Source of the DNA: Vulcanisaeta sp. AZ3
Lineage (GTDB): Archaea; Thermoproteota; Thermoprotei; Thermoproteales; Thermocladiaceae
DNA: 64,000 nt
NCBI GenBank assembly: GCA_000960865.2
Contig: JZWU02000005.1
Span: 1 to 64,000, forward strand
Direction: 5' to 3'
Part shown: positions 20,374 through 44,472 of the stretch, piece by piece
Position numbering within the stretch: the stretch's first letter is position 1
How the letters are laid out: each line of letters opens with the position of its first letter
Program-made: the position numbers and the translations under genes
The notes under the pieces: model-generated
What the model was told of the DNA's origin: nothing
What the model saw: the letters and a program-made list of their open reading frames with translations, nothing else
Databases searched by the model: none

Positions 20374-21049
20374 AACACATTATGTATATATGCCTTTTAA
20401 AGATTACACTGTATATATCGATATGGTCCTAATTAATTCAATATAATACAAATATGCGATCTAAAAAATCAATATAAGTTCTTGATATAATTGTAAGGGA
20501 TTATGTATAAGCAGCTAATATATTTTTATATTAAAATGATGGTATTATGAATAGCATTACTCCTCAGTGATGAATTACATAGAGAACGGTCGATAAACTC
20601 AGATCCCTAAAAAGGTATTTTTAACCATGCCTTGAGTAAATTATTGTAAAGTCATTAATAGTGTAACGATAGAGAGTTTGAATATAGCTACTAAATGTAC
20701 TCTGTCTGAATTTAATAAAGTGAAACTTATAGACCACGTTACTAAATGGAGTTAGAAATATGAAGAGAACAGTTAAGGCTTTCATAGAGTTTTCTAACGA
20801 AAGAACTAAGAGCTATCCATGGATATCACAATGACAAGTATCACAGGACTCTTCGATAATTTTAATTGCTACACACCTAAAATTTAATAATTATAATATT
20901 ACAAGGTAAGCAATAGAATTGGTATGGAGTATTCATAATTGATTAATAATTATTAATTTTGATATTTATGCTATGATCGTGAATATATATTTTTCTGGGA
21001 AAGGTAAATTTTAAATAGGTAGTATGCACGTGCCTATATAGGTGACTGG

Positions 21050-22176
21050 ATGGAAATGGAAACCAAGTACTAGATAGAGGCCTTTGGATTTCAAAGGTTG
21101 GGGGTTCCCTACTAACGAGAAAATCAACTCTTAGAACTATAAGCAGTGTTATTGGGAGAGATCTAAAGCCTGGCAGTAGATTAATCCTTGTGGTTTCAGC
21201 AATGAAGGGGGTAACGGACTTACTTATCAGAGCTCTAGATGAGCATAATCCTGCATTTATAGATGAAGCTGTGTCGATGTATGTTGATGAGGCGTTATAT
21301 CTTGAGTTAAAATCATATGCTAAGTTTCTGGAGTTTGTTAATGAGGAATTACGTAGGTTTGTGAATATAGATGAACCCTGGGTTAAGGATCATACTATTG
21401 TTCATGGAGAGTTATTGTCATCATTGCTTGTTGAGGGTATCTTAAATGATATAATTGGTGTTAGGGCTAAGGCGGTTTATGAACCTGGAATAGTGGTTAA
21501 GCAAGAGTGGGGTAATGCAAGTGTTATTCATGAGCTGAGTAATACCTTTGTTCGTGAAAGGTATGATGGATTGATTAGGAAGTACGATGTTGTAGTTGTA
21601 CCTGGATTCTTGGGTGTGACGTTGGATGGTAGGTATGCATCGTTGGGTAGGGGCGGCAGTGATTACACAGCTTCGTTGCTTGCTAACTATCTGAGTGCCT
21701 CAGGGCTGACGTTCTATACAGACAGTGGCGGTCTACTTAGTGGTGATCCTAAGGTTGTGAATGATCCTGTGCTCATTAGGGAGGTTTGTTATGAGGAGGC
21801 TTATGCGGCTGCGATGGTTGGCGCTAAGAAGTTCCATCCAAGGACCTTTGAACCATTACTTAATAGTAATGTTAGGATGTTAATAACAAGCCCGTGGCTT
21901 GATGTCGGTACTTATATAACTAATAAGTGTATTGACACACCTAAAATAGTTAGTCTTAGCGGTGATGGAAGGTCTCTTAAGGTTTCTGTGGTGGGTTATA
22001 ATGCAGCTAAGAGGGAAGATGTATTCAGTGAGGTTTATACTATTGCATCCTCGTACGGTATAAACAGTATTACGCATGATAACGATCACGTACTATCCAT
22101 GCCTGTGGATGATTATAAAATAGCATTAACCCTCGTTAGAGATATACATAGGTGGGTGAGAAAATGGATAAGTTGA
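21050..22176 (+). CDS. Aspartate kinase; ATG 21050 is out of frame and the kinase frame is reached by -1
   Basis: KVGGS (21094-21108) lies upstream of the first in-frame canonical start (21190); [15 protein letters not shown] and DP motifs. Confidence 0.88.
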
Positions 22177-24256: not shown

Positions 24257-25491
24257 ATGGGGATTGAAATGGAAACCAGGAATTAATAAGAAGGTCTCTA
24301 GACAAGTATGTACTTAAGTGCCCAAGGTGTGGCTATGAGGTTGAGGCAAATCCGTTCATAATGAGGTGCCCAAGGTGTGGTGAATTACTTGATGCTGAGT
24401 TAATAGCCGAAATGATTCATATTAGGTGGGATAGGCTGCACGGTAGGGGTGTTTGGAGATATGAGAGATTGCTTCCTAGATTAAATAGTGTGGTCACTAT
24501 GGGTGAAGGATCAACACCATTAATAAGACTCAAACAATTCTCTAATGCTTATGTTAAGTTTGAGGGGCTGAATCCAACGGGTTCCTTTAAGGATAGAGGA
24601 ATGACAATTGGTACATCATTAGCTTTAGCAATAGGTGCAAGAGGGATAATTGTGGCGTCTACAGGGAATACTGCAGCCTCGGCGGCAGCTTATTCAGCTA
24701 GGGCAGGCCTTGAGTGCTTGGTAGTGCTTCCTAGGGGTGGTGTGGCTAGGGGTAAGTTGGCTCAGTCTATGTTGCATAATGCACGTATATTAGAGGTTAC
24801 TGGGACCTTCGATAATGCCTTGGAGTATGTGCTGGATTCCGTGTTGAGTAATGGTGCTGTTAATGGTGTTAATTACTATCCACTTAACTCAATAAATCCA
24901 TGGAGACTAGAGGGTCAGAAAACAATTGCATATGAAATCGTTGAGGAGCTTGGTGTCCCTGACTTTGTGTTTGTTCCTGTGGGTAATGGCGGTAATATTT
25001 ACGCTATTTGGAAGGGATTTAGAGAATTGGTGGAGCTTGGTGTGATCGATCGTGTACCAAGGATGATGGGGGTGCAGGCTGAGGGGGCTAATCCAATGGT
25101 TAGGTATTGGAGAGGGCTTGGTGAGGCTAAGATTGAGAATCCGAGGACTGTAGCCTCAGCAATAAGGATTGGCAAACCAATTAATTGGTTTAGAGCCTTC
25201 AGGGCCGTTAAGTATAGTAATGGCACCTTCCTGGAGGTTAGCGATGAAGAGATATTAAATGCCCAGAGAGTACTTGGTAGGGAGGGTATAGGTGTTGAGC
25301 CGGCTAGTGCAGCATCGCTGGCAGGTTACTTAAGGGCGTTAAAAGACGGTCTTGTGGATAGGAATGATAAAGTGGTGCTAATAGCCACAGGGCATGCTCT
25401 TAAAGATCCCGATATACTAACTATGGGGAATGCGCAGTTTATGAGGGTGTCATCAATCAATGAATTAAGAACGTTAATTGCCACTAAGTAA
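24257..25491 (+). CDS. thrC: Threonine synthase; ATG 24257/24269 are out of frame and the enzyme frame is reached by -1
   Basis: NPTGSFKDRG, ASTGNT, PVGNGGN and EPASA motifs; the first CPRC of the Zn ribbon (24319-24330) precedes the first in-frame ATG. Confidence 0.9.
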
Positions 25492-27438: not shown

Positions 27439-28307
27439 ATGGAACGGGAACCACGATTGGGCAAAGTTCAGGAGATAATAATGAAGTGACCATACTGTAT
27501 GATTTCGTGAGAACTGAGGAGAAGTTACTTGTTAATGAGTTCAGAAAGCTCGGTGTCAACCTGAGGTTGATAAATATTGATAAGCTATCACTAAGACTTG
27601 ATAGTGAGGTCAGCCTTGGAGTATCATTAGTTAGGCCAGTAAGCCATTTAAAGGCTAGTCTCGTGGCTAAGGTGCTTAATGCACACGGAGTTATTACAAT
27701 AAACAATGGTCTCGCCATAGAAAACGCTTGGAATAAGGCGGTAGCATTATCCATATTAGCAAAGTCCGGAATACCCATTGTGCCAACAAAGCTTCTATTC
27801 TCTGTGGAGTTTAACGATGATGGAATTCAGTATCCAGTTATTGTTAAGCCTGTCCATGGATCCTGGGGCAGATTAGTAAGCCTCGTGGGTGATATGGATG
27901 AGCTAAGGCTCGTGCTTAAACACAATGCTCTTGATAATGCTAATCCTAGAATTTACATGCTACAACCATTCATTGGTAATGGTAAAGATTATAGGGTCTT
28001 TGTTATTGGTGATGAGGTAGTGGCTTCAATGACTAGGTTACCTAGCGATGGCGATTGGCGCAGTAATGTAGCTAGAGGTGGTATTCCACGTGCCGTTAAA
28101 CTTAGCGATGATGCTTACGAATATGCAGTTAAGGCGGTTAAGGTTCTTGGGCTCGATTACGCTGGCGTTGATATGCTTCAAGGTCCAAATGGTTATTTGA
28201 TTAATGAGGTTAATGCAATACCTGAATTTAAGGGCTTAATGATAGCATCTGGCGTTAACATAGCACGTAAAATAGCTAAGTACGTAATAAACCTAGTCAG
28301 AAGGTGA
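27439..28307 (+). CDS. argX: Glutamate--LysW ligase ArgX-like; leader ATG 27439 is out of frame, in-frame GTG at 27486
   Basis: KPVHGSWGR, WRSNVARGG and NEVNAIPEF motifs; lacks the LysX-type IYR/NT signature. Confidence 0.75.
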
Positions 28308-33990: not shown

Positions 33991-35187
33991 TTAAGTGAGC
34001 TTACCATATTCATTAACAGCTTCACGTATTCTCCTAATACCCTCTCTAATTCTATCAATACTCTCAACAACAAAGGATACCCTAATTGCACCTCTGTAGA
34101 TTTCTGAGAAATAAGTTCCAGGTATTACCGTAACGCCAAACCTCTCTAAGAGCATCTCTGCAAATTTCTCAGAATCATCTATATACCTAGATAGATCTAC
34201 GAATATGAACATGGAACCCTTTGGAATTCTAAAACGAGCCTCAGGCAGATACTCCTTAAGTGCATTGACGGCAGCATCTCTCCTAGCCCTGTACTCCTCA
34301 ATCACGTACTTGAGGTGCCTCATCCTAACTTCTGACCTTAAGTAAGTCATTACGAACCTCTGAGCAACGACAGGAGGACAGTAGGTCATTTCCTCGGCAG
34401 CTAATTTCAATTTTGGTACTGCCTCACCAGGTCCGTATAAGAACCCGAGTCTCCAACCTGGTATCCCTGGATCCTTGGAGAATGTATTTATTGATATTAC
34501 GTGATCTAGTGCGTACTTATACATATAGGTATGCTCCCCCTCATATATGAGGGTTCTATAGGCCTCGTCGGATACTATCCAGAAATCCTTGTCTTTCGCT
34601 AAATCAGCCATGGCTTTAGCTGTATCCTTATCGATTATGTTCCCCGTTGGATTATCTGGGGATACTATGACTAGGGCCTTTGTTTTATTAGTTATTAATT
34701 CCTTTAGTTTTTCAATATCAATCTTAAATCCATCCTCAATATTTAAGTGCAGCCTCCTCACTTTACCGCCGAAGTATTCTATTATTGATTTATAGCCAAA
34801 GTATGTAGGATCAAGTAAAATTACCTCATCGCCTGGGTTTAGTATTGTCATAAATGTCGCAAACATACCCTCCTGACCGCCCGTGACTATGACTATGTCA
34901 TCAGGGCTAACATCAATACCACCAAGTCTCTTTAAATCCTCAGAAATAGCCTCCCTTAAATCAATTATTCCCTGGCTTGGTGTATAGCCGTAGAGCTCCA
35001 TACCTCTTTCCTCGAGAAGCTGCTTGGCAAGTATTGATCTAATTTCGATGGGTGGTTGTATTCCAGGTTGACCTGCTGAGAGGTTTATTATGTCCTTATT
35101 TTCACGCCTTAGCCTTTCTCTAATGGCGTCTATTCTACGGGTTGGTGACTCCCTTAAAAATGATATAGCTTGGGAAAAGCCGCGCAT
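33991..35187 (-). CDS. Class I PLP aminotransferase (aspartate/aminoadipate type)
   Basis: PDNPTG, DEAY and TFSKDPGIPGWRLG motifs; ATG 35187 fits TATA spacing. Confidence 0.88.
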   Translation of the reverse strand: MRGFSQAISFLRESPTRRIDAIRERLRRENKDIINLSAGQPGIQPPIEIRSILAKQLLEERGMELYGYTPSQGIIDLREAISEDLKRLGGIDVSPDDIVIVTGGQEGMFATFMTILNPGDEVILLDPTYFGYKSIIEYFGGKVRRLHLNIEDGFKIDIEKLKELITNKTKALVIVSPDNPTGNIIDKDTAKAMADLAKDKDFWIVSDEAYRTLIYEGEHTYMYKYALDHVISINTFSKDPGIPGWRLGFLYGPGEAVPKLKLAAEEMTYCPPVVAQRFVMTYLRSEVRMRHLKYVIEEYRARRDAAVNALKEYLPEARFRIPKGSMFIFVDLSRYIDDSEKFAEMLLERFGVTVIPGTYFSEIYRGAIRVSFVVESIDRIREGIRRIREAVNEYGKLT

Positions 35188-35292
35188 TGCATAATCTAGT
35201 TCTTTAGGGTATATATACATTATGTATACATGACATGGGTATTAGAATCTTAGGGGCAAAGCTTATAAAATATTTAGAATTACGGAGTGTGA

Positions 35293-36373
35293 ATGATTCG
35301 GATTAAGAAGACGCTACTTAGTACTTCAGGATGGAAGTATATATCGTGGTTATGCCTTTGGTGCTGATGGTAATGCCGTTGGGGAGGTCGTCTTCACAAC
35401 AGCTAACGTTGGCTATCCTGAATCACTCACAGATCCGTCGTATAAGGGGCAAATACTCATATTCACAATGCCGCTAATCGGCAATTACGGCGTATCGCCA
35501 GACCAATGGGAGAGCAGCTCAATTCAAGTTAGTGGTATAGTTGTATTTGATGTAACATCACCAAGCCATTATACGTCAATAATGAGTCTTGATGAGTGGT
35601 TAAGGAGGGATGGTATACCTGGTGTCTTTAGGGTTGATACGAGGGCTATAACTATCAAGTTAAGGGAGCTGGGTGTTATGATGGGCGCTATAGCTGATAA
35701 TCCGGCTGAGGGGTTTAGGTTGATTAGAAGTGCTCCTCGTTATGATGATTTTGATTTCGTAAAGCTCGTGTCACCAAGTGACATAATTAATTATGATAAT
35801 AATGATGGACCATGTATAGGTATTGTGGATTGTGGCGTAAAAATGGGTATTGTGAGAAACTTACTAGCAAGAGGCGTTAGGGTTGTTAGATATCCTTGTC
35901 ATATGTGGTCCAGGGTTATTAACGAATGCGACGGTGTCGTCTTAAGCAACGGTCCAGGCAACCCAAATCTCTTGAACTTTCTCATAGATGCCGTGACAGA
36001 CATAATTATGGATAGAAAGCCAACCCTAGGTATATGCCTAGGTCACCAAGTAATAGCCCTTGGTGTGGGGGCGAGACTTTATAAGATGAAGTATGGACAC
36101 AGAGCGATAAACAAGCCTGTGCTAGACTTAATTAGGGGAAGAGTCTACGTGACAACTCACAACCATGGTTATGCTGTAGATCCGCAATCAATAAAGGGTA
36201 CGGGCTTTAAGATATGGGCAGTACAACCCGATGATAAGACTGTAGAGGGTTTGATACATGAGAAGTTACCAATAATAACTACGCAATTCCATCCAGAGGC
36301 TAGGCCTGGGCCCAATGATACTACTTGGATCTTTGATGAGTTCATAAAGTTAGTGATGAGGTATGGACATTAG
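35293..36373 (+). CDS. carA: Carbamoyl-phosphate synthase small subunit; ATG 35293 is out of frame and the enzyme frame is reached by +1
   Basis: YLVLQDG, GEVVFTT and GYPESLTDPSYKGQI all lie upstream of the first in-frame ATG (35468); SNGPGNP, GICLGHQ and QFHPE motifs. Confidence 0.9.
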
Positions 36374-39300
36374 GAGAGTCCTCGTTATAGGCAGTGGACC
36401 AATAAAGATTGCAGAGGCTGCGGAGTTCGATTATTCAGGTATACAAGCTTTGAAGGCCTATAGGGAGGAGGGGCTGACTACAATTCTCGTTAATCCTAAT
36501 GTGGCCACTGTCCAAACCACGAGAGTTTTTGCCGATAGGGTATACCTGGCACCAATAAAGCCTGAGTTTCTTATTAAGATTATTGAGAAGGAAAGACCTG
36601 ATGTAATAGCCTGTGGCTTTGGTGGCCAGACGGCCTTGTCCGCATGCGTTAACTTAAATGACATGGGCGTTTTTAGGGAGTATGGTATTAAGGTCCTGGG
36701 AACACCTATTGAGGGTATCAGGTCTGCCCTTAGTAGGGAGTTGTTTAAAGAATTAATAGGTAAGTATGAGATACCAGCGTTACCCTCAATAACCACCCAC
36801 ACATTGAGCGAGGCTATTGAAGCCGCAAATAAATTGGGTTACCCAATCCTAGCCAGGGTATCCTTCAACCTAGGTGGTGCTGGAGCCTTTATGGCCAATA
36901 ATGATGAGGAGTTAATTAACAAATACCATAAGGCCTTAGCACAGAGTGAGATTAAAGAGGTGCTCGTTGAGAAGTATATCGGCGGCTGGAAGGAGATAGA
37001 GTTTGAAGTCATGAGGGATTCTTATGGAAACTCTGTGGCCGTCGTATGCATGGAGAATGTAGATCCCATGGGGATTCATACTGGTGATTCTGTTGTCGTA
37101 GCACCATGCTTAACACTAACTAACGAGGAATATCAGAGGGCTAGGCTACTTTCGATAGAAGTTGCTAATGCAATAAGTCTTATTGGCGAGTGTAATGTGC
37201 AAGTAGCAATAAATCCAAACGGGCCGGATATGTATGTCATAGAAACAAACCCAAGGATGAGCAGATCAAGTGCACTGGCAAGTAAGGCTTCGGGTTATCC
37301 TCTGGCATACATGGCGGCTAAATTAACGCTTGGTTATAGGCTTGATGAGCTAATAAATAAGGTTACTAATAAGACTGTAGCCGCCTTCGAACCGGCCCTC
37401 GACTACATAGTAGTTAAGATACCGAGGTGGGAGAACGATAGGTTTGAGGTTAATGAGCCGCTGGGACCTGAAATGATGAGTATTGGCGAGGTGATGGGAA
37501 TTGGCAGGACTCTTGAGGAAGCTTGGCAGAAGGCCGTTAGGATGTTAGACATTGGGGAGCCAGGCTTAGTTGGTGGCCGTGTGTATGAGGAGGCGAGTAT
37601 TGAGGAGGCTAGGGAGGGGGTTATTGGGAGGAAGCCGTATTGGTTCTTATACGCAGCTGTGCTTCTTAGGGAGGGGGTTAGTGTTGATGAGATTAATAGG
37701 TGGACTGGGGTGGATAGGTTCTTCTTGAATGCCATTAAGAGGGTTGTGGATGTTTATGAGAGACTTAAGAGAGGCTTGATTAACCTTAGTGAGGATGTCA
37801 TTGAGGAGCTATATGTGCTTGGCTTTAATGAGGAGCAATTACGTAAGGCTTTAGGTAAAGATGTACCTGAGAGGTTACCTGTCGTCAAGCAAATCGATAC
37901 TTTAGCTGGAGAGTGGCCCGCCAATACTAATTATTTATACTTAACCCATGGTGGTGAGTTTGATGATTATACAGGACCTAATGTAGATGCGATAGTTACG
38001 GGTGCTGGTGTGTTTAGGATTGGGGTTTCCGTCGAGTTTGATTGGGCGGTCGTTAATACCGTGCTGGCACTTAGAAGATTAGGACTTAGAATTGGCATTG
38101 TTAATTATAATCCCGAGACTGTGAGTACAGATTGGGACTTTGCGAATAAGCTATTCTTCGATGAATTAACACCGAGGACCATTAGAAATATCTTAATTAA
38201 GGAAGGGCCGAGGTTGATTGCGCTTTGGGCTGGGGGTCAGATTGGGCAGAGACTTTATGGTAAGGTAAAGTCCTGGTTAATCGATGGTGTGGAGATCTTA
38301 GGCACACAACCCGAGGGCGTAGATCTAGCTGAAGATAGGGTAAAGTTCTCAAGGTTACTTGAGGAGTTAGGGCTTGATCAGCCGCCATGGGCGTTTGCAA
38401 GCAGTCTCGATGAGTTAATAGGCTTAGTTGAGAGGTGGTTGGATTATCCAGTCATAGTAAGGCCTAGTTATGTATTGGGTGGCACGTATATGGGGCTTGC
38501 AAGAGATAGGGATGAACTTATTAAGTATGTGAGCAGGGCGACTAAAATAAGCCCTGAGCATCCTGTTGTGGTGTCTAAGTTTATTGGTGATGGAACTGAG
38601 GCTGAGGTTGATGGGGTTAGTGATGGTAAATCAACTATTGTAATCCCGATTGAGCATATTGAACCACCAGGTGTCCATTCTGGGGATAGTACTATGGTAA
38701 TATCACCCAGGGGTTTAGACTATAAGCTAAATGATTATTGGTGGGGTAAGGTGGGTGATGCAGCTCATAGAATAGCTAATGCTCTAAGCGTTAAGGGTCC
38801 CTTCAATGTGCAGTTCATTGTGAAAGATAAGCTTTACATCATAGAGGCTAATGTTAGAGCTAGCAGGTCAATGCCATTTACGAGTAAGGCCGTGGGCATT
38901 AACCTAATGGACATATCTGTTAAGGCAGCTCTAAGAGGTCTAGGCATGGATAAGGACTACCTAATACTGAGACCGAGACTTTGGTGGGTTAAGACAAGTC
39001 AATTTTCCTGGAGTAGGGTTAGGGGTGCTTATCCAAGGCTCGGCCCAGTTATGTATTCTACAGGCGAGGTAGCCTCTATGGGGCGTAGTTTCGAGGAGGC
39101 CTTACTTAAGGCTTGGTTATCTACAACGCCATCTAGAGTACCTCGCAACAGTGCCCTGGTGTATACATATGATAAATACTTAGAAAGGAGTATTGATGCA
39201 GTTATTAATGAATTAAATGGTTGGGTTAAGGTGATTACGGAGCCAAATGGGATTAAGGATGATTTAAAGACTGGGCATGTAGATATCGTAATTACTGGTG

Positions 39301-39488
39301 GTGATACTAGGGATTATGATTATGAAATACGTAGATTAGCTGTAGATACGGCAACACCCATAATCCTCCACCCAGCACTAGGCCTTGAGCTAGCCCACGC
39401 TTTTAAATGGCTATGGCTAGGTAATGAAGCTAGCGTGATTGAGCTTTGGGAAGCTAATGGTATTAATGGAGTTAATTTAGGCGATTAA
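36363..39488 (+). CDS. carB: Carbamoyl-phosphate synthase large subunit
   Basis: GSGPIKI, EFDYSG, HTGDS and NPRMSRSSALASKA motifs; duplicated ATP-grasp halves. Confidence 0.95.
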   Translation: MDIRRVLVIGSGPIKIAEAAEFDYSGIQALKAYREEGLTTILVNPNVATVQTTRVFADRVYLAPIKPEFLIKIIEKERPDVIACGFGGQTALSACVNLNDMGVFREYGIKVLGTPIEGIRSALSRELFKELIGKYEIPALPSITTHTLSEAIEAANKLGYPILARVSFNLGGAGAFMANNDEELINKYHKALAQSEIKEVLVEKYIGGWKEIEFEVMRDSYGNSVAVVCMENVDPMGIHTGDSVVVAPCLTLTNEEYQRARLLSIEVANAISLIGECNVQVAINPNGPDMYVIETNPRMSRSSALASKASGYPLAYMAAKLTLGYRLDELINKVTNKTVAAFEPALDYIVVKIPRWENDRFEVNEPLGPEMMSIGEVMGIGRTLEEAWQKAVRMLDIGEPGLVGGRVYEEASIEEAREGVIGRKPYWFLYAAVLLREGVSVDEINRWTGVDRFFLNAIKRVVDVYERLKRGLINLSEDVIEELYVLGFNEEQLRKALGKDVPERLPVVKQIDTLAGEWPANTNYLYLTHGGEFDDYTGPNVDAIVTGAGVFRIGVSVEFDWAVVNTVLALRRLGLRIGIVNYNPETVSTDWDFANKLFFDELTPRTIRNILIKEGPRLIALWAGGQIGQRLYGKVKSWLIDGVEILGTQPEGVDLAEDRVKFSRLLEELGLDQPPWAFASSLDELIGLVERWLDYPVIVRPSYVLGGTYMGLARDRDELIKYVSRATKISPEHPVVVSKFIGDGTEAEVDGVSDGKSTIVIPIEHIEPPGVHSGDSTMVISPRGLDYKLNDYWWGKVGDAAHRIANALSVKGPFNVQFIVKDKLYIIEANVRASRSMPFTSKAVGINLMDISVKAALRGLGMDKDYLILRPRLWWVKTSQFSWSRVRGAYPRLGPVMYSTGEVASMGRSFEEALLKAWLSTTPSRVPRNSALVYTYDKYLERSIDAVINELNGWVKVITEPNGIKDDLKTGHVDIVITGGDTRDYDYEIRRLAVDTATPIILHPALGLELAHAFKWLWLGNEASVIELWEANGINGVNLGD

Positions 39489-39491
39489 TGC

Positions 39492-40635
39492 TTACGATCT
39501 CTCCTCAATTGGTATATACTTAAGTCCAATGGGTCCTGTATACCTCTCTGTAGGTCTTATCAGCTTACCATTCATCTGCCAATACTCAAGGGTATGTGCT
39601 GTCCAACCAACCATTCTTGCCATTGCGAAGTTGGCGGGATTATACTCGGGTGGGAATCCTAGGAAGTAAAATATTAGTGATGTATATAGGTCAGTATTTG
39701 CATAAATCCCCTTACTACTTAGGTGCTTTTCCACAGCTCTTTCAAGAGCAAGAGTAGTTTCGTAAAGTTTAACATAATCACTACCTCCCTCCTTAGCCAG
39801 ATCACTGGCAATAGCCCTGAGGTAAGTAAGCCTTGGATCGGCATACTTCTTATACAATCTATGACCAAAGCCTATGATCTTCTCCCCACGCCTCAACTTC
39901 TCCACCACATAGTTCTCAGCTTTAGATGGATCGGTGGCTTCCATTATTGTCCTCAGGGCTTCGAAACTCGCTCCTCCATGTAACGGACCCTTAAGACCCG
40001 ATAAAGCAGCTACCATAACCGAATAGATATCACTCCATGTCGAGGCCACAGTGACTGCTGTAAAGGAGGAGTTATTCATTCCATGTTCCATGTATGTTAT
40101 GAACATTGCCTCAAGAGCCCTTAACTCAGTGGTGCTAGGCTCCTTATTAAAGAACATGTAGAAATAATCGGCCACGTGACCTAAATCATCCCGTGGCCTT
40201 GGTATAATTCCATCACTACTTAATCTATAGTACGTAGCCACTATGGTGGGTGCCTTTGCTATGATAGATATGGCCTTCTCATAATCATTCTTACCCTTAC
40301 TAAAAGCCTCCTTTATCCAAGGTGCCTAAATGATTGATTGAAAGTCTGAGTACATCAATCGGACGTAGACCTCTCGGTAACTCTCTAAGTAAACTCAATA
40401 CCTCATTCGGTAGTTCTCTATTCATGGCCAACAAATCCTTAAAACTTGCTAGCCCCTCCTTATTGGGCAACTTCCCATTTAATAATAAATAGGCTACCTC
40501 CTCAAAGTTAGCCTTTACGGCAAGTTCTGATAAATCATAACCCCTATAGTAAATTTTCGCATTATCAAGGTCTATGAAACATACTTTACTCTCTTTAACT
40601 ATTATTCCCTCAAGACCCCAAGCAACTGTTGCCAT
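39492..40635 (-). pseudogene. gltA: Si-citrate synthase split by a +1 frameshift near 40300-40316
   Basis: N-part has GLEG..IYYRGY..FEEVAYLL; C-part has EHGMN, GPLHGGA, GFGHRLY and NTD; frames join as LDK|EAFSKGKNDYEKAISIIAKAPTIVA. Confidence 0.8.
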
Positions 40636-40678
40636 AAATAGCAATTTTCACAAATGAGCAGTTCTTTAAATTTATTTA

Positions 40679-43258: not shown

Positions 43259-44472
43259 TTAGTTCTTATGCCTAGCCCTAAATGCTGTTAATGAGTGCAT
43301 TGTGTGCATTTTAATGAAGCCTCTAGCTTCCTCCTCGCTTGGGTACCAACCACCTATGTAATCTACTAACTCCTTACTGTAGCTTGCATATGGGCTTTCC
43401 CTACCTACTATTGTTAATCCACCAAGCACCCTAATCCTCACTTTACCGCTAATCCACTTATTCATTGACCTAATAAGCTGCTCTAACTCTTCACGCAATG
43501 GCTCATGCCAAAGCCCTTGATAAACAAGATCTGTCCAGGTCTGATCCACAATCTTCTTAAACCTATACTCCAATGGTGTATAGATTAACTTTTCAAGATC
43601 CTTGTGAACCTCTATTAGCGTTAAGGCAGCAGGCGCTTCATAGACCTCCCTGGACTTAAAGCCCACAACTCTATTCTCCACATGGTCAATCCTACCAAAA
43701 CCGTGCATACCAACGATTCTATTTAACGTGGTTATTATGCTCACAAGATCCATCCTCTCGCCGTTAACAGCTATGGGTAAGCCCTCCTTGAACTCAATCT
43801 CTAGATTTAGTGGTTCATGTACCTTCTCTAGGGGGATCGTCCATTTGAATGCATCTTCAGGTACTTCCACAGATGGATCGTCTATCTCATGGCCCTCAAT
43901 GCTCCTCGACCATAGATTATCATCTATACTGAACCTGCTGTGTATGTTGGGTATTGGTATGTTGTTCCTTCTGGCATACTCAATCTCACTGGCCCTATCC
44001 ATATTCCAGATCTTGGCTGGTTCTATGATCATGAGATCAGGTGCTAATGCCATGAGGGCTTCATTAAATCTAACCTGGTCATTACCCTTAGACGTGGAGC
44101 CGTGGGCCACTGCATCGCAACCCTCCCTTTTAGCAACTTCAACAATTCTCTCAGCGATTAATGGTCTAGCTAATGCTGTACCTAATGGATACTTATCCTC
44201 GTAGAGAGCATTTGCCATTATCGCCGTGGCTACTGGGCCGTTGGCAAAGTCTTGCCTCGCATCTATAGTAATGTGCTTCGTAGCACCAGCTTTGTAAGCT
44301 CTTCTCTCAATGTCCTCAAAATCATCATCCTGACCAACATTGACCGTGACTGTTATAACCTCTGCATTAAACTTACTCCTTAACCAATGAATTGCAACTG
44401 TGGTGTCTAAACCTCCTGAGAATGCTAAGACAATTTTACCTGGCTTTTTGTGCTCCGGTTTAAATTATTCAC
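43259..44472 (-). CDS. argG: Argininosuccinate synthase; GTG 44472 is out of frame and the enzyme frame is reached by -1
   Basis: KIVLAFSGGLDT PP-loop lies upstream of the first in-frame start (44218); HGSTSKGNDQVRF and KSREVYEAP motifs. Confidence 0.92.

Follow-up and report, generated by a model that had tools for sequence, protein, structure and literature searches.

The first 64,000 nucleotides (nt) of contig JZWU02000005.1 from Vulcanisaeta sp. AZ3, read on the forward strand and called the window throughout, contain the carAB genes for the two subunits of carbamoyl-phosphate synthase. At the head of carA, a start codon placed where a leaderless message would be expected to begin lies one base out of the frame that encodes the enzyme, and the enzyme frame has no canonical start of its own for a considerable distance. 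The features of the locus are as follows (the eight Vulcanisaeta sequences are defined below; ORF stands for open reading frame):

35263..35270, + strand: TATA box TTATAAAA of the carAB promoter, identified from the sequence, in a block conserved in Vulcanisaeta
35293..35295, + strand: ATG, the presumed leaderless start, one base out of the CarA frame; the same base triplet in all eight Vulcanisaeta sequences
35293..35367, + strand: zero-frame mini-ORF of 24 codons plus TGA (35365-35367), which non-shifting ribosomes would translate
35296..35302, + strand: proposed +1 shift heptamer ATT_CGG_A, with ATT in the P site and a slow CGG in the A site; reading after the shift would resume at GGA
35299..35301, + strand: CGG, proposed as the sensor; no sense codon is rarer in the genes of the window
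35300..36373, + strand: body of carA in the +1 frame, stop codon 36371-36373; match to TIGR01368, the small subunit of glutamine-hydrolysing carbamoyl-phosphate synthase
36363..39488, + strand: carB; match to TIGR01369 at 1148.3 bits, with an ATG that overlaps the end of carA by 11 nt

In the window sequence, ATG 35293 is followed by ATT at 35296 and CGG at 35299. The CarA frame opens at 35297, directly past a TGA at 35294-35296, and the first ATG, GTG or TTG within it is ATG 35468, so that 57 codons pass without a canonical start. The main frame of CarA matches the NCBIfam model TIGR01368 with 408.8 bits (cut-off 307.35), main-frame residues 7-353 being aligned to profile positions 2-359 of 361, and residues 4-377 of Escherichia coli CarA (1bxr_B) align with main-frame residues 5-356. 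Because the family model and the E. coli protein both align from about residue 5-7, the true N-terminus of CarA cannot be more than a few codons from 35297. The CarA frame of 358 codons is unbroken, and so is carB, which is probably translationally coupled to carA, so that a shift at the head of carA would gate both subunits. The locus presents a functional frame without its own start together with an upstream start in another frame, an arrangement found in its strict form in the window and in one further Vulcanisaeta locus (L015). The public protein collection holds a CarA of 301 residues that starts at ATG 35468 and is missing the N-terminal part; gene callers now shorten both CarA and ThrC at the N-terminus.

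With C 35262 taken as its first base, the carA box starts 31 nt ahead of ATG 35293. The promoter block GCAAAGCTTATAAAATATTTA is kept in all eight Vulcanisaeta sequences; L002 and L003 each differ from it by single substitutions. A recognisable TATA-like box precedes 13 of the 35 ordinary window starts that were scanned, at distances of 23-33 nt with a mode of 30, and 11 of these 13 boxes lie 27-31 nt before the start codon. The spacing fits a transcriptome that is mostly leaderless. Because the box spacing at carA equals that of ordinary starts here, ATG 35293 would lie at or next to the 5' end of the mRNA. The initial annotation of this DNA had described the TATA box and ATG 35293 at leaderless spacing, the mini-ORF running from ATG ATT CGG to the TGA at 35367, and a CarA frame that begins after TGA 35294 and has no canonical start in 57 codons of conserved N-terminal domain. 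Box and spacing are borne out (31 nt, against 27-31 nt for 11 of the 13 ordinary boxes), the coordinates of the mini-ORF all hold, and the missing start is confirmed by the sequence and by the match to TIGR01368.

A search with the CarA frame, taking one genome per species, returned 46 loci. The start context was compared for the 16 closest of them (L001-L016), which comprise seven Vulcanisaeta (L001, L002, L003, L005, L007, L015, L016), two Caldivirga (L004, L006) and seven more distant archaea; the comparison stopped short of L017-L046, which are bacteria and distant archaea with no more than 47% identity. The eight Vulcanisaeta sequences are the window and these seven loci, whose CarA is 62-85% identical to that of the window (76-85% for the three clean contigs from metagenome-assembled genomes, MAGs). 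The out-of-frame ATG-NTT-CGG is found in all eight. The middle codon is ATT in seven and CTT only in L002 (A/C at 35296), with NUU_C kept throughout. One of the nine columns of ATG-NTT-CGG is variable, compared with 14 of the 21 in the spacer between the promoter block and the ATG, and the site is conserved between species in a pattern of purifying selection.

From the GGN codon, which overlaps CGG, onward the pattern of variation is that of the CarA frame, with 5/22, 1/22 and 16/22 columns variable at codon positions 1, 2 and 3. The third base of GGN is A, C or T, a difference that is silent in the CarA frame but changes the residue in the zero frame. After GGN, TTA and TTG are exchanged as synonymous leucine codons, upstream of every candidate in-frame start, and the single insertion or deletion between the site and the gene body is of 3 nt (L005, L016). 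The zero-frame peptide of the orthologs runs for 14 to 24 codons and is conserved only as Met-(Ile/Leu)-Arg. In L002 the site reads CUU_CGG_C, which alters the zero-frame residue yet has the form of the yeast Ty1 site CUU_AGG_C. The initial annotation had allowed that orthologs might be in frame and lack the CGG; within the genus, neither the CGG nor the out-of-frame ATG is missing from any of the seven orthologs. Both the product it had predicted, MI-GLRRRYLV, and the +1 direction are consistent with the frame-specific pattern of variation.

These comparisons bear directly on the possibility that the displaced start reflects a sequencing or assembly error, or a pseudogene in decay. Errors and broken genes do occur in this material: the window has another split gene, for citrate synthase (39492-40644), and the JCM drafts among the orthologs are full of frame breaks. 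In those drafts argG, lysJ, hcs, lysK, argC and others are split into two to four frame segments; such breaks are typical of homopolymer sequencing errors, and the drafts are unfit on their own for frameshift calls. The same motif is present in the clean MAG contigs L001-L003, which excludes a base-calling artefact. The arrangement recurs in eight of eight independent genomes, these three contigs included, and both carB and the 358-codon frame, in which variation falls mostly on third positions, are whole. Error or decay is hard to credit at all on this evidence, and was rejected on the grounds of the eightfold conservation and the codon-periodic variation.

Codon usage was counted in 42 genes of the window (16,089 codons). 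CGG is the rarest sense codon, with five in-frame occurrences (0.31 per 1000, or 0.5% of arginine codons); AGG and AGA occur 557 and 353 times in the same genes. The CGG trinucleotide is not rare as such, with 9.4 and 7.9 occurrences per 1000 when these genes are read in their other two frames. In frame CGG is avoided, being about 30 times less frequent, but codon 3 of the carA mini-ORF is CGG without exception, and the rarity of CGG gives the site the rare A-site codon that marks sites of the Ty1 type. A scan of the window for a start codon followed by up to seven codons and then CGG gave about 200 matches, nearly all of them within genes in other frames, and did not work as a detector; only three sites at gene heads, those of carA, argG and argX, stood out.

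The arrangement of starts, the conservation of the site and the choice of codon together suggest that carA is expressed by a programmed, arginine-sensitive +1 ribosomal frameshift at codons 2-3 of a leaderless mRNA, a reading of the sequence to which we assign a probability of roughly 0.6. Transcription would begin at or next to the A of ATG 35293, and the ribosome would initiate there, read ATT as isoleucine and meet CGG, a codon whose tRNA-Arg is presumably scarce, in the A site. While the A site stays empty, the peptidyl-tRNA on AUU (CUU in one species) would re-pair one base forward on UUC, after which GGA would enter the A site and translation would go on in the CarA frame. The shifted product would start Met-Ile-Gly-Leu-Arg-Arg-Arg-Tyr-Leu-Val-Leu, two residues longer than E. 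coli CarA ahead of the first strand, and ribosomes that decode CGG in time would make a dead-end peptide of 24 residues. Because the supply of charged tRNA-Arg sets how long the ribosome waits at CGG, a shortage of arginine should increase the share of ribosomes that shift, which would amount to negative feedback at the level of decoding.

The two other gene-head sites found in the scan have a similar build:

44455..44472, - strand: argG site, GTG 44472 followed by AAT AAT TTA AAC CGG, with the ArgG frame at -1; kept in 5/5 sequences
27439..27447, + strand: argX site, ATG GAA CGG, with the ArgX frame at -1; ATGGAACGG is the same in 7/7 sequences

At argG, a slippery run T_TTA_AAC (44464-44458) is followed by CGG at 44457-44455 on the reverse strand, and a TATA-like box begins 30 nt before the out-of-frame GTG 44472. 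The ArgG frame of the window runs for 82 codons without a canonical start. GTG and TAAACCGG are the same in all five sequences that reach the head of argG (the window, L003, L005, L015 and L016), and in none of the five does argG have an in-frame canonical start. The full T_TTA_AAC is found in the window argG only, the other four keeping A_AAC; that A_AAC is all they have in common points to a single tRNA slipping on AAC while CGG waits. At argX, the conserved gene body follows CGG after 3 nt in five loci, 39 nt in L001 and 42 nt in the window, all multiples of 3, and the insertions of 36 and 39 nt are open in the ArgX frame, so that the frame relation is preserved. Four of the seven argX sequences have no in-frame canonical start ahead of the conserved Leu-Tyr-Asp (LYD). 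The window argX has an in-frame GTG overlapping the stop of its mini-ORF, and the public protein collection holds an ArgX of 273 residues that starts at the in-frame GTG and not at the out-of-frame ATG. The argG genes of Sulfolobales and the argX genes of Caldivirga have ordinary in-frame ATG starts. The initial annotation was right that argG and argX carry the same CGG with a putative shift in the direction opposite to that of carA.

The common logic of the three sites would be a start codon, one to four codons, a codon that can re-pair, and then CGG. Standard anticodons would re-pair better from AUU or CUU to UUC at carA (+1), from GAA to GGA at argX (-1) and from AAC to AAA at argG (-1), and the direction required at each site would accordingly be that of the better P-site re-pairing. 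With less charged tRNA-Arg, a longer wait at CGG would lead to more shifting and hence to more CarA, ArgG and ArgX, and through coupling to more CarB. The pair of directions also bears on other ways of correcting the frame, namely four-base decoding of CGGN by an unusual tRNA, polymerase slippage that loses one nucleotide from the mRNA, or RNA editing. Reading CGGN in one step would indeed enter the CarA frame; argG and argX need -1 at CGG, which cannot be obtained in this way. No unusual tRNA was seen in the window or in the nine of the 46 loci that were scanned for tRNA genes, and the carA site contains no homopolymer run longer than two on which a polymerase might slip. Corrections of this kind seem very improbable.

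The idea that CGG acts as a sensor of arginine is supported indirectly, because CGG is the rarest codon, because it stands at the putative shift point of three arginine genes, and because a threonine codon occupies the equivalent place in two genes of the threonine branch, thrC and the aspartate kinase gene (described below). A rival reading is that the shift is real and constitutive. CGG might be very slow or nearly unassigned and hold CarAB translation at a fixed low level with no readout of arginine; as the rarest codon it is suited to such a role, and the demand of pyrimidine synthesis for carbamoyl phosphate would argue for a steady basal output. Ty1 itself works constitutively through a scarce tRNA-Arg, according to a review (PMC5009743). 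CGG is, however, still a sense codon at five ordinary positions, and a plain throttle would not be expected to pair codon with pathway, as is seen with CGG at three sites in arginine genes and a threonine codon at two sites of the threonine branch. A purely constitutive shift is in our judgment improbable.

Several observations weigh against an arginine-sensitive frameshift at carA. We infer the transcript start, the slip itself and the dependence on arginine from sequence alike. On paper, re-pairing from AUU to UUC would leave a U-U mismatch at the first position, presumably with 2/3 pairing for tRNA-Ile as compared with 3/3, including wobble, for tRNA-Leu, so that the site would be less slippery than one with CUU. 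Carbamoyl phosphate also feeds pyrimidine synthesis, and control by arginine only would be awkward unless the basal level of shifting were substantial. No stimulatory fold was detected at 35293-35400 (z = -0.96 relative to shuffled sequences), and folding all eight sequences together gave almost no covariation (a term of -0.37 kcal/mol, and one compensatory pair among 29). A gene for tRNA-Arg(CCG) was found neither in the window, which has only a tRNA-Ser gene, nor in the nine of the 46 loci that were scanned (L001-L007, L015, L016). Four of the orthologs are the JCM drafts (L005, L007, L015, L016), which have many scattered frame breaks elsewhere and so weigh less, although their motif is identical. 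The two Caldivirga carA genes (L004, L006) have an in-frame ATG. In Vulcanisaeta itself, an in-frame TTG is codon 3 of the CarA frame in six of the eight sequences (the window is not among them), and an in-frame GTG, the Val codon of YLVLQDG, lies a few codons further on in three of the eight; the shift would not be strictly required in those species.

The in-frame codons are the basis of the main rival explanation, a serious one, in which no frameshift takes place. CarA would start in frame just downstream, at TTG or GTG, or in the window at a near-cognate codon such as TTA or ATA, and the ATG-ATT-CGG mini-ORF would be an overlapping regulatory upstream ORF (uORF) in which stalling at CGG modulates access to the start. 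Public gene calls (P0009, P0010, P0011, P0016) use such starts or later ones, the carA of Caldivirga has a uORF with a rare CGA and a TGA overlapping the in-frame ATG, and the GTG of the window argX overlaps its mini-ORF stop. The window and L015, in contrast, have TTA and no canonical start before codon 58. The in-frame codons vary by species, and TTA/TTG and GGN do so in the way of synonymous sense codons, while the out-of-frame ATG and the CGG are invariant. A start some 10 nt into a leaderless mRNA also leaves no space for a ribosome-binding site. At the companion sites, argG has no in-frame start in any of its five sequences and argX has none before LYD in four of seven. Finally, stalling at CGG under arginine scarcity would be expected to lower, and not raise, initiation downstream. 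For these reasons we consider in-frame initiation unlikely.

The Caldivirga heads (L004, about 1957-1982; L006, about 2904-2929) carry at the leaderless position a mini-ORF of five codons, ATG ATG GGA CGA GCA TGA, in which the rare arginine codon CGA follows G_GGA. Its TGA shares bases with the in-frame ATG of carA, whose frame is open at -1 relative to the mini-ORF. A leader with an arginine codon may be older than the Vulcanisaeta arrangement. Many CarA predictions (P0033, P0035-P0039, P0041 and P0043, the one named Pyrobaculum aerophilum being P0038) have their first residue 10-17 positions into the conserved first strand, as at Met/Val-Phe-x-Gly-Arg, and full-length relatives begin before Tyr-Leu-Val-Leu-Glu-Asp-Gly. 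Judged from these predicted N-termini, the missing in-frame start of carA may extend beyond Vulcanisaeta.

Several well-studied systems offer partial parallels to the proposed frameshift. The bacterial leader peptides (trp, his, thr) are encoded by very short 5' ORFs that contain the pathway's own codons, and the speed of the ribosome there reports the level of charged tRNA. The A site of prfB is a stop codon, and shifting is helped by an upstream element resembling a Shine-Dalgarno sequence. In fungi, the arginine attenuator peptide (the uORF of CPA1 and arg-2) is a conserved nascent peptide that stalls the ribosome in the presence of free arginine. By analogy, the carA site appears most like Ty1 in its chemistry and most like prfB and the bacterial leader peptides in its logic.

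The yeast Ty1 site, CUU_AGG_C, shifts by +1 with the involvement of a rare tRNA-Arg, as described in a review (PMC5009743). The likeness to the mechanism proposed for carA lies in a site of seven bases without RNA structure, at which a P-site codon of the NUU type (Leu or Ile) slips by +1 during the wait at a rare arginine codon in the A site. The differences are that carA is an archaeal cellular gene for biosynthesis, that the site would occupy codons 2-3 of a leaderless mRNA, that the codon is CGG and not AGG, and that the slow codon specifies the pathway's own end product, which would give the site a feedback logic; the two sites have no sequence homology. The release factor 2 gene, prfB, uses its +1 frameshift for autoregulation, as another paper states (PMC12421855). 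As in the proposal for carA, the shift takes place close to the 5' end, and the regulated pathway makes the very product that decodes the A-site signal, with the result that the rate of shifting reports the supply of that product; at carA the A site would hold a sense codon and no upstream RNA would be present. A site of the prfB type was rejected on that account, since the A-site codon is the sense codon CGG and a site 3 nt from the presumed 5' end leaves no room for an upstream element. The +1 frameshift of antizyme is a sensor of polyamines, according to a third source (PMC1874602). It shares with the proposal the use of a frameshift as both sensor and effector of metabolic feedback; it differs in being eukaryotic, in having a stop codon in the A site, in sensing a small molecule and not tRNA charging, and in its opposite sign, as the product stimulates shifting.

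Leader-peptide attenuation, described for pheL in a further source (PMC3082878), likewise employs a short 5' ORF with codons for the pathway's own amino acid. Its output is the termination of transcription through alternative hairpins; the output at carA would be the reading frame, and no conserved structure accompanies it. A leader-peptide transcription attenuator was considered for carA and rejected, since alternative hairpins were supported neither by the fold z-score nor by covariation nor by Rfam, which gave no match at E <= 1 in 35100-35600. The initial annotation had likened carA to the fungal CPA1/arg-2 attenuator, in logic and not in mechanism. The likeness stands at that level, the target being the small subunit of the same enzyme and the control proposed being arginine feedback on translation. 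It does not extend to the mechanism: the fungal peptide is conserved, the zero-frame peptide of carA is unconserved beyond three residues, and the ORFs overlap. An arginine attenuator peptide uORF was rejected for carA because the zero-frame peptides differ after Met-(Ile/Leu)-Arg and because of that overlap.

The step proposed for carA is the one known from hungry codons, at which a P-site tRNA slips when the A-site aminoacyl-tRNA is limiting, as set out in two reviews (PMC8211752, PMC5009743). The E. coli cases of Gallant and co-workers are, by contrast, laboratory constructs or errors, and Atkins and colleagues, in their review of 2016 (PMC5009743), state that natural hungry-codon frameshifting with a functional product specific to starvation was not known. 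In archaea, the 2021 review (PMC8211752) names fucA1 of Saccharolobus solfataricus as the only frameshift shown by experiment; the ribosome shifts by -1 there, on A_AAA_AAT in the middle of the gene, and no metabolic logic is known for it. A genome-wide survey of conserved frame transitions (PMC3711429) makes no mention in its main text of carbamoyl, argininosuccinate, threonine synthase, aspartate kinase or Vulcanisaeta, and its supplementary cluster tables might list such genes. Our literature search found no description of the arrangement seen at carA.

We know of little on how amino acids are sensed in Crenarchaeota, and to our knowledge the bacterial attenuators are absent there and most mRNAs are leaderless. 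A change of reading frame as early as codons 2-3 could operate without one. If the carA site works as proposed, the three short sites would make amino-acid sensing by decoding directly testable.

A broader proposal is that Vulcanisaeta uses a family of 5'-terminal "frameshift attenuators" in amino-acid biosynthesis, each consisting of a leaderless start, a shift-prone codon and a codon for the end product, such that a shortage of the cognate tRNA would direct ribosomes into the enzyme frame, by +1 or -1, through P-site re-pairing. The codons in question would be CGG for carA, argG and argX, ACC for thrC, and AUG followed by ACC in tandem for aspartate kinase. Such a family would do in archaea what leader-peptide attenuation does in bacteria; it would also be the first case of hungry-codon frameshifting put to use in nature and the first programmed +1 frameshift in a cellular gene of an archaeon. 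We hold this proposal tentatively, at slightly less than even odds.

At the head of thrC (24268-24361, + strand), the ThrC frame opens at 24268 and runs for 31 codons without a canonical start. The first CPRC of the zinc ribbon lies upstream of ATG 24361, and adding the upstream part moves the start of the alignment to the model NF004170 from profile position 18 to position 2. The public protein collection holds a ThrC of 376 residues that starts at ATG 24361 and is missing the N-terminal part. An out-of-frame ATG at 24269 reads ATG GAA ACC AGG AAT TAA, with ThrC at -1 (as read from the window sequence), which is the ATG GAA module of argX with a threonine codon in place of CGG; a TATA-like box lies 40 nt upstream. 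The aspartate kinase frame (head at 21046-21190, + strand) has 48 codons without a canonical start, and both TIGR00656 and TIGR00657 align from main-frame residue 14-15. Its out-of-frame ATG, at 21050, reads ATG GAA ATG GAA ACC AAG TAC TAG, with the kinase at -1 (again as read from the window sequence), so that two tandem G_GAA modules are followed first by a methionine codon and then by a threonine codon, the two end products of the branch.

Three other observations concern the remainder of the window. The 2-isopropylmalate synthase frame of leuA (head at 15244-15230, - strand) has 39 codons without a canonical start; at the leaderless position, with a box about 30 nt upstream, TTG GTG GGA is followed by a TAG (15235-15233) in the LeuA frame, that is, by an in-frame stop and not by a change of frame. 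The citrate synthase gene noted above, on the reverse strand, is split into ORFs of 114 and 249 residues and needs a +1 change near GAT AAA GGA GGC, a break that may reflect mutation, error or recoding; no syntenic ortholog spans it, L002 extending only to the C-terminal end of the gene. Of the eight in-frame CGA codons of the window, two lie very near gene starts, at codon 3 of lysX (32848, - strand) and codon 6 of ilvB (15490, + strand).

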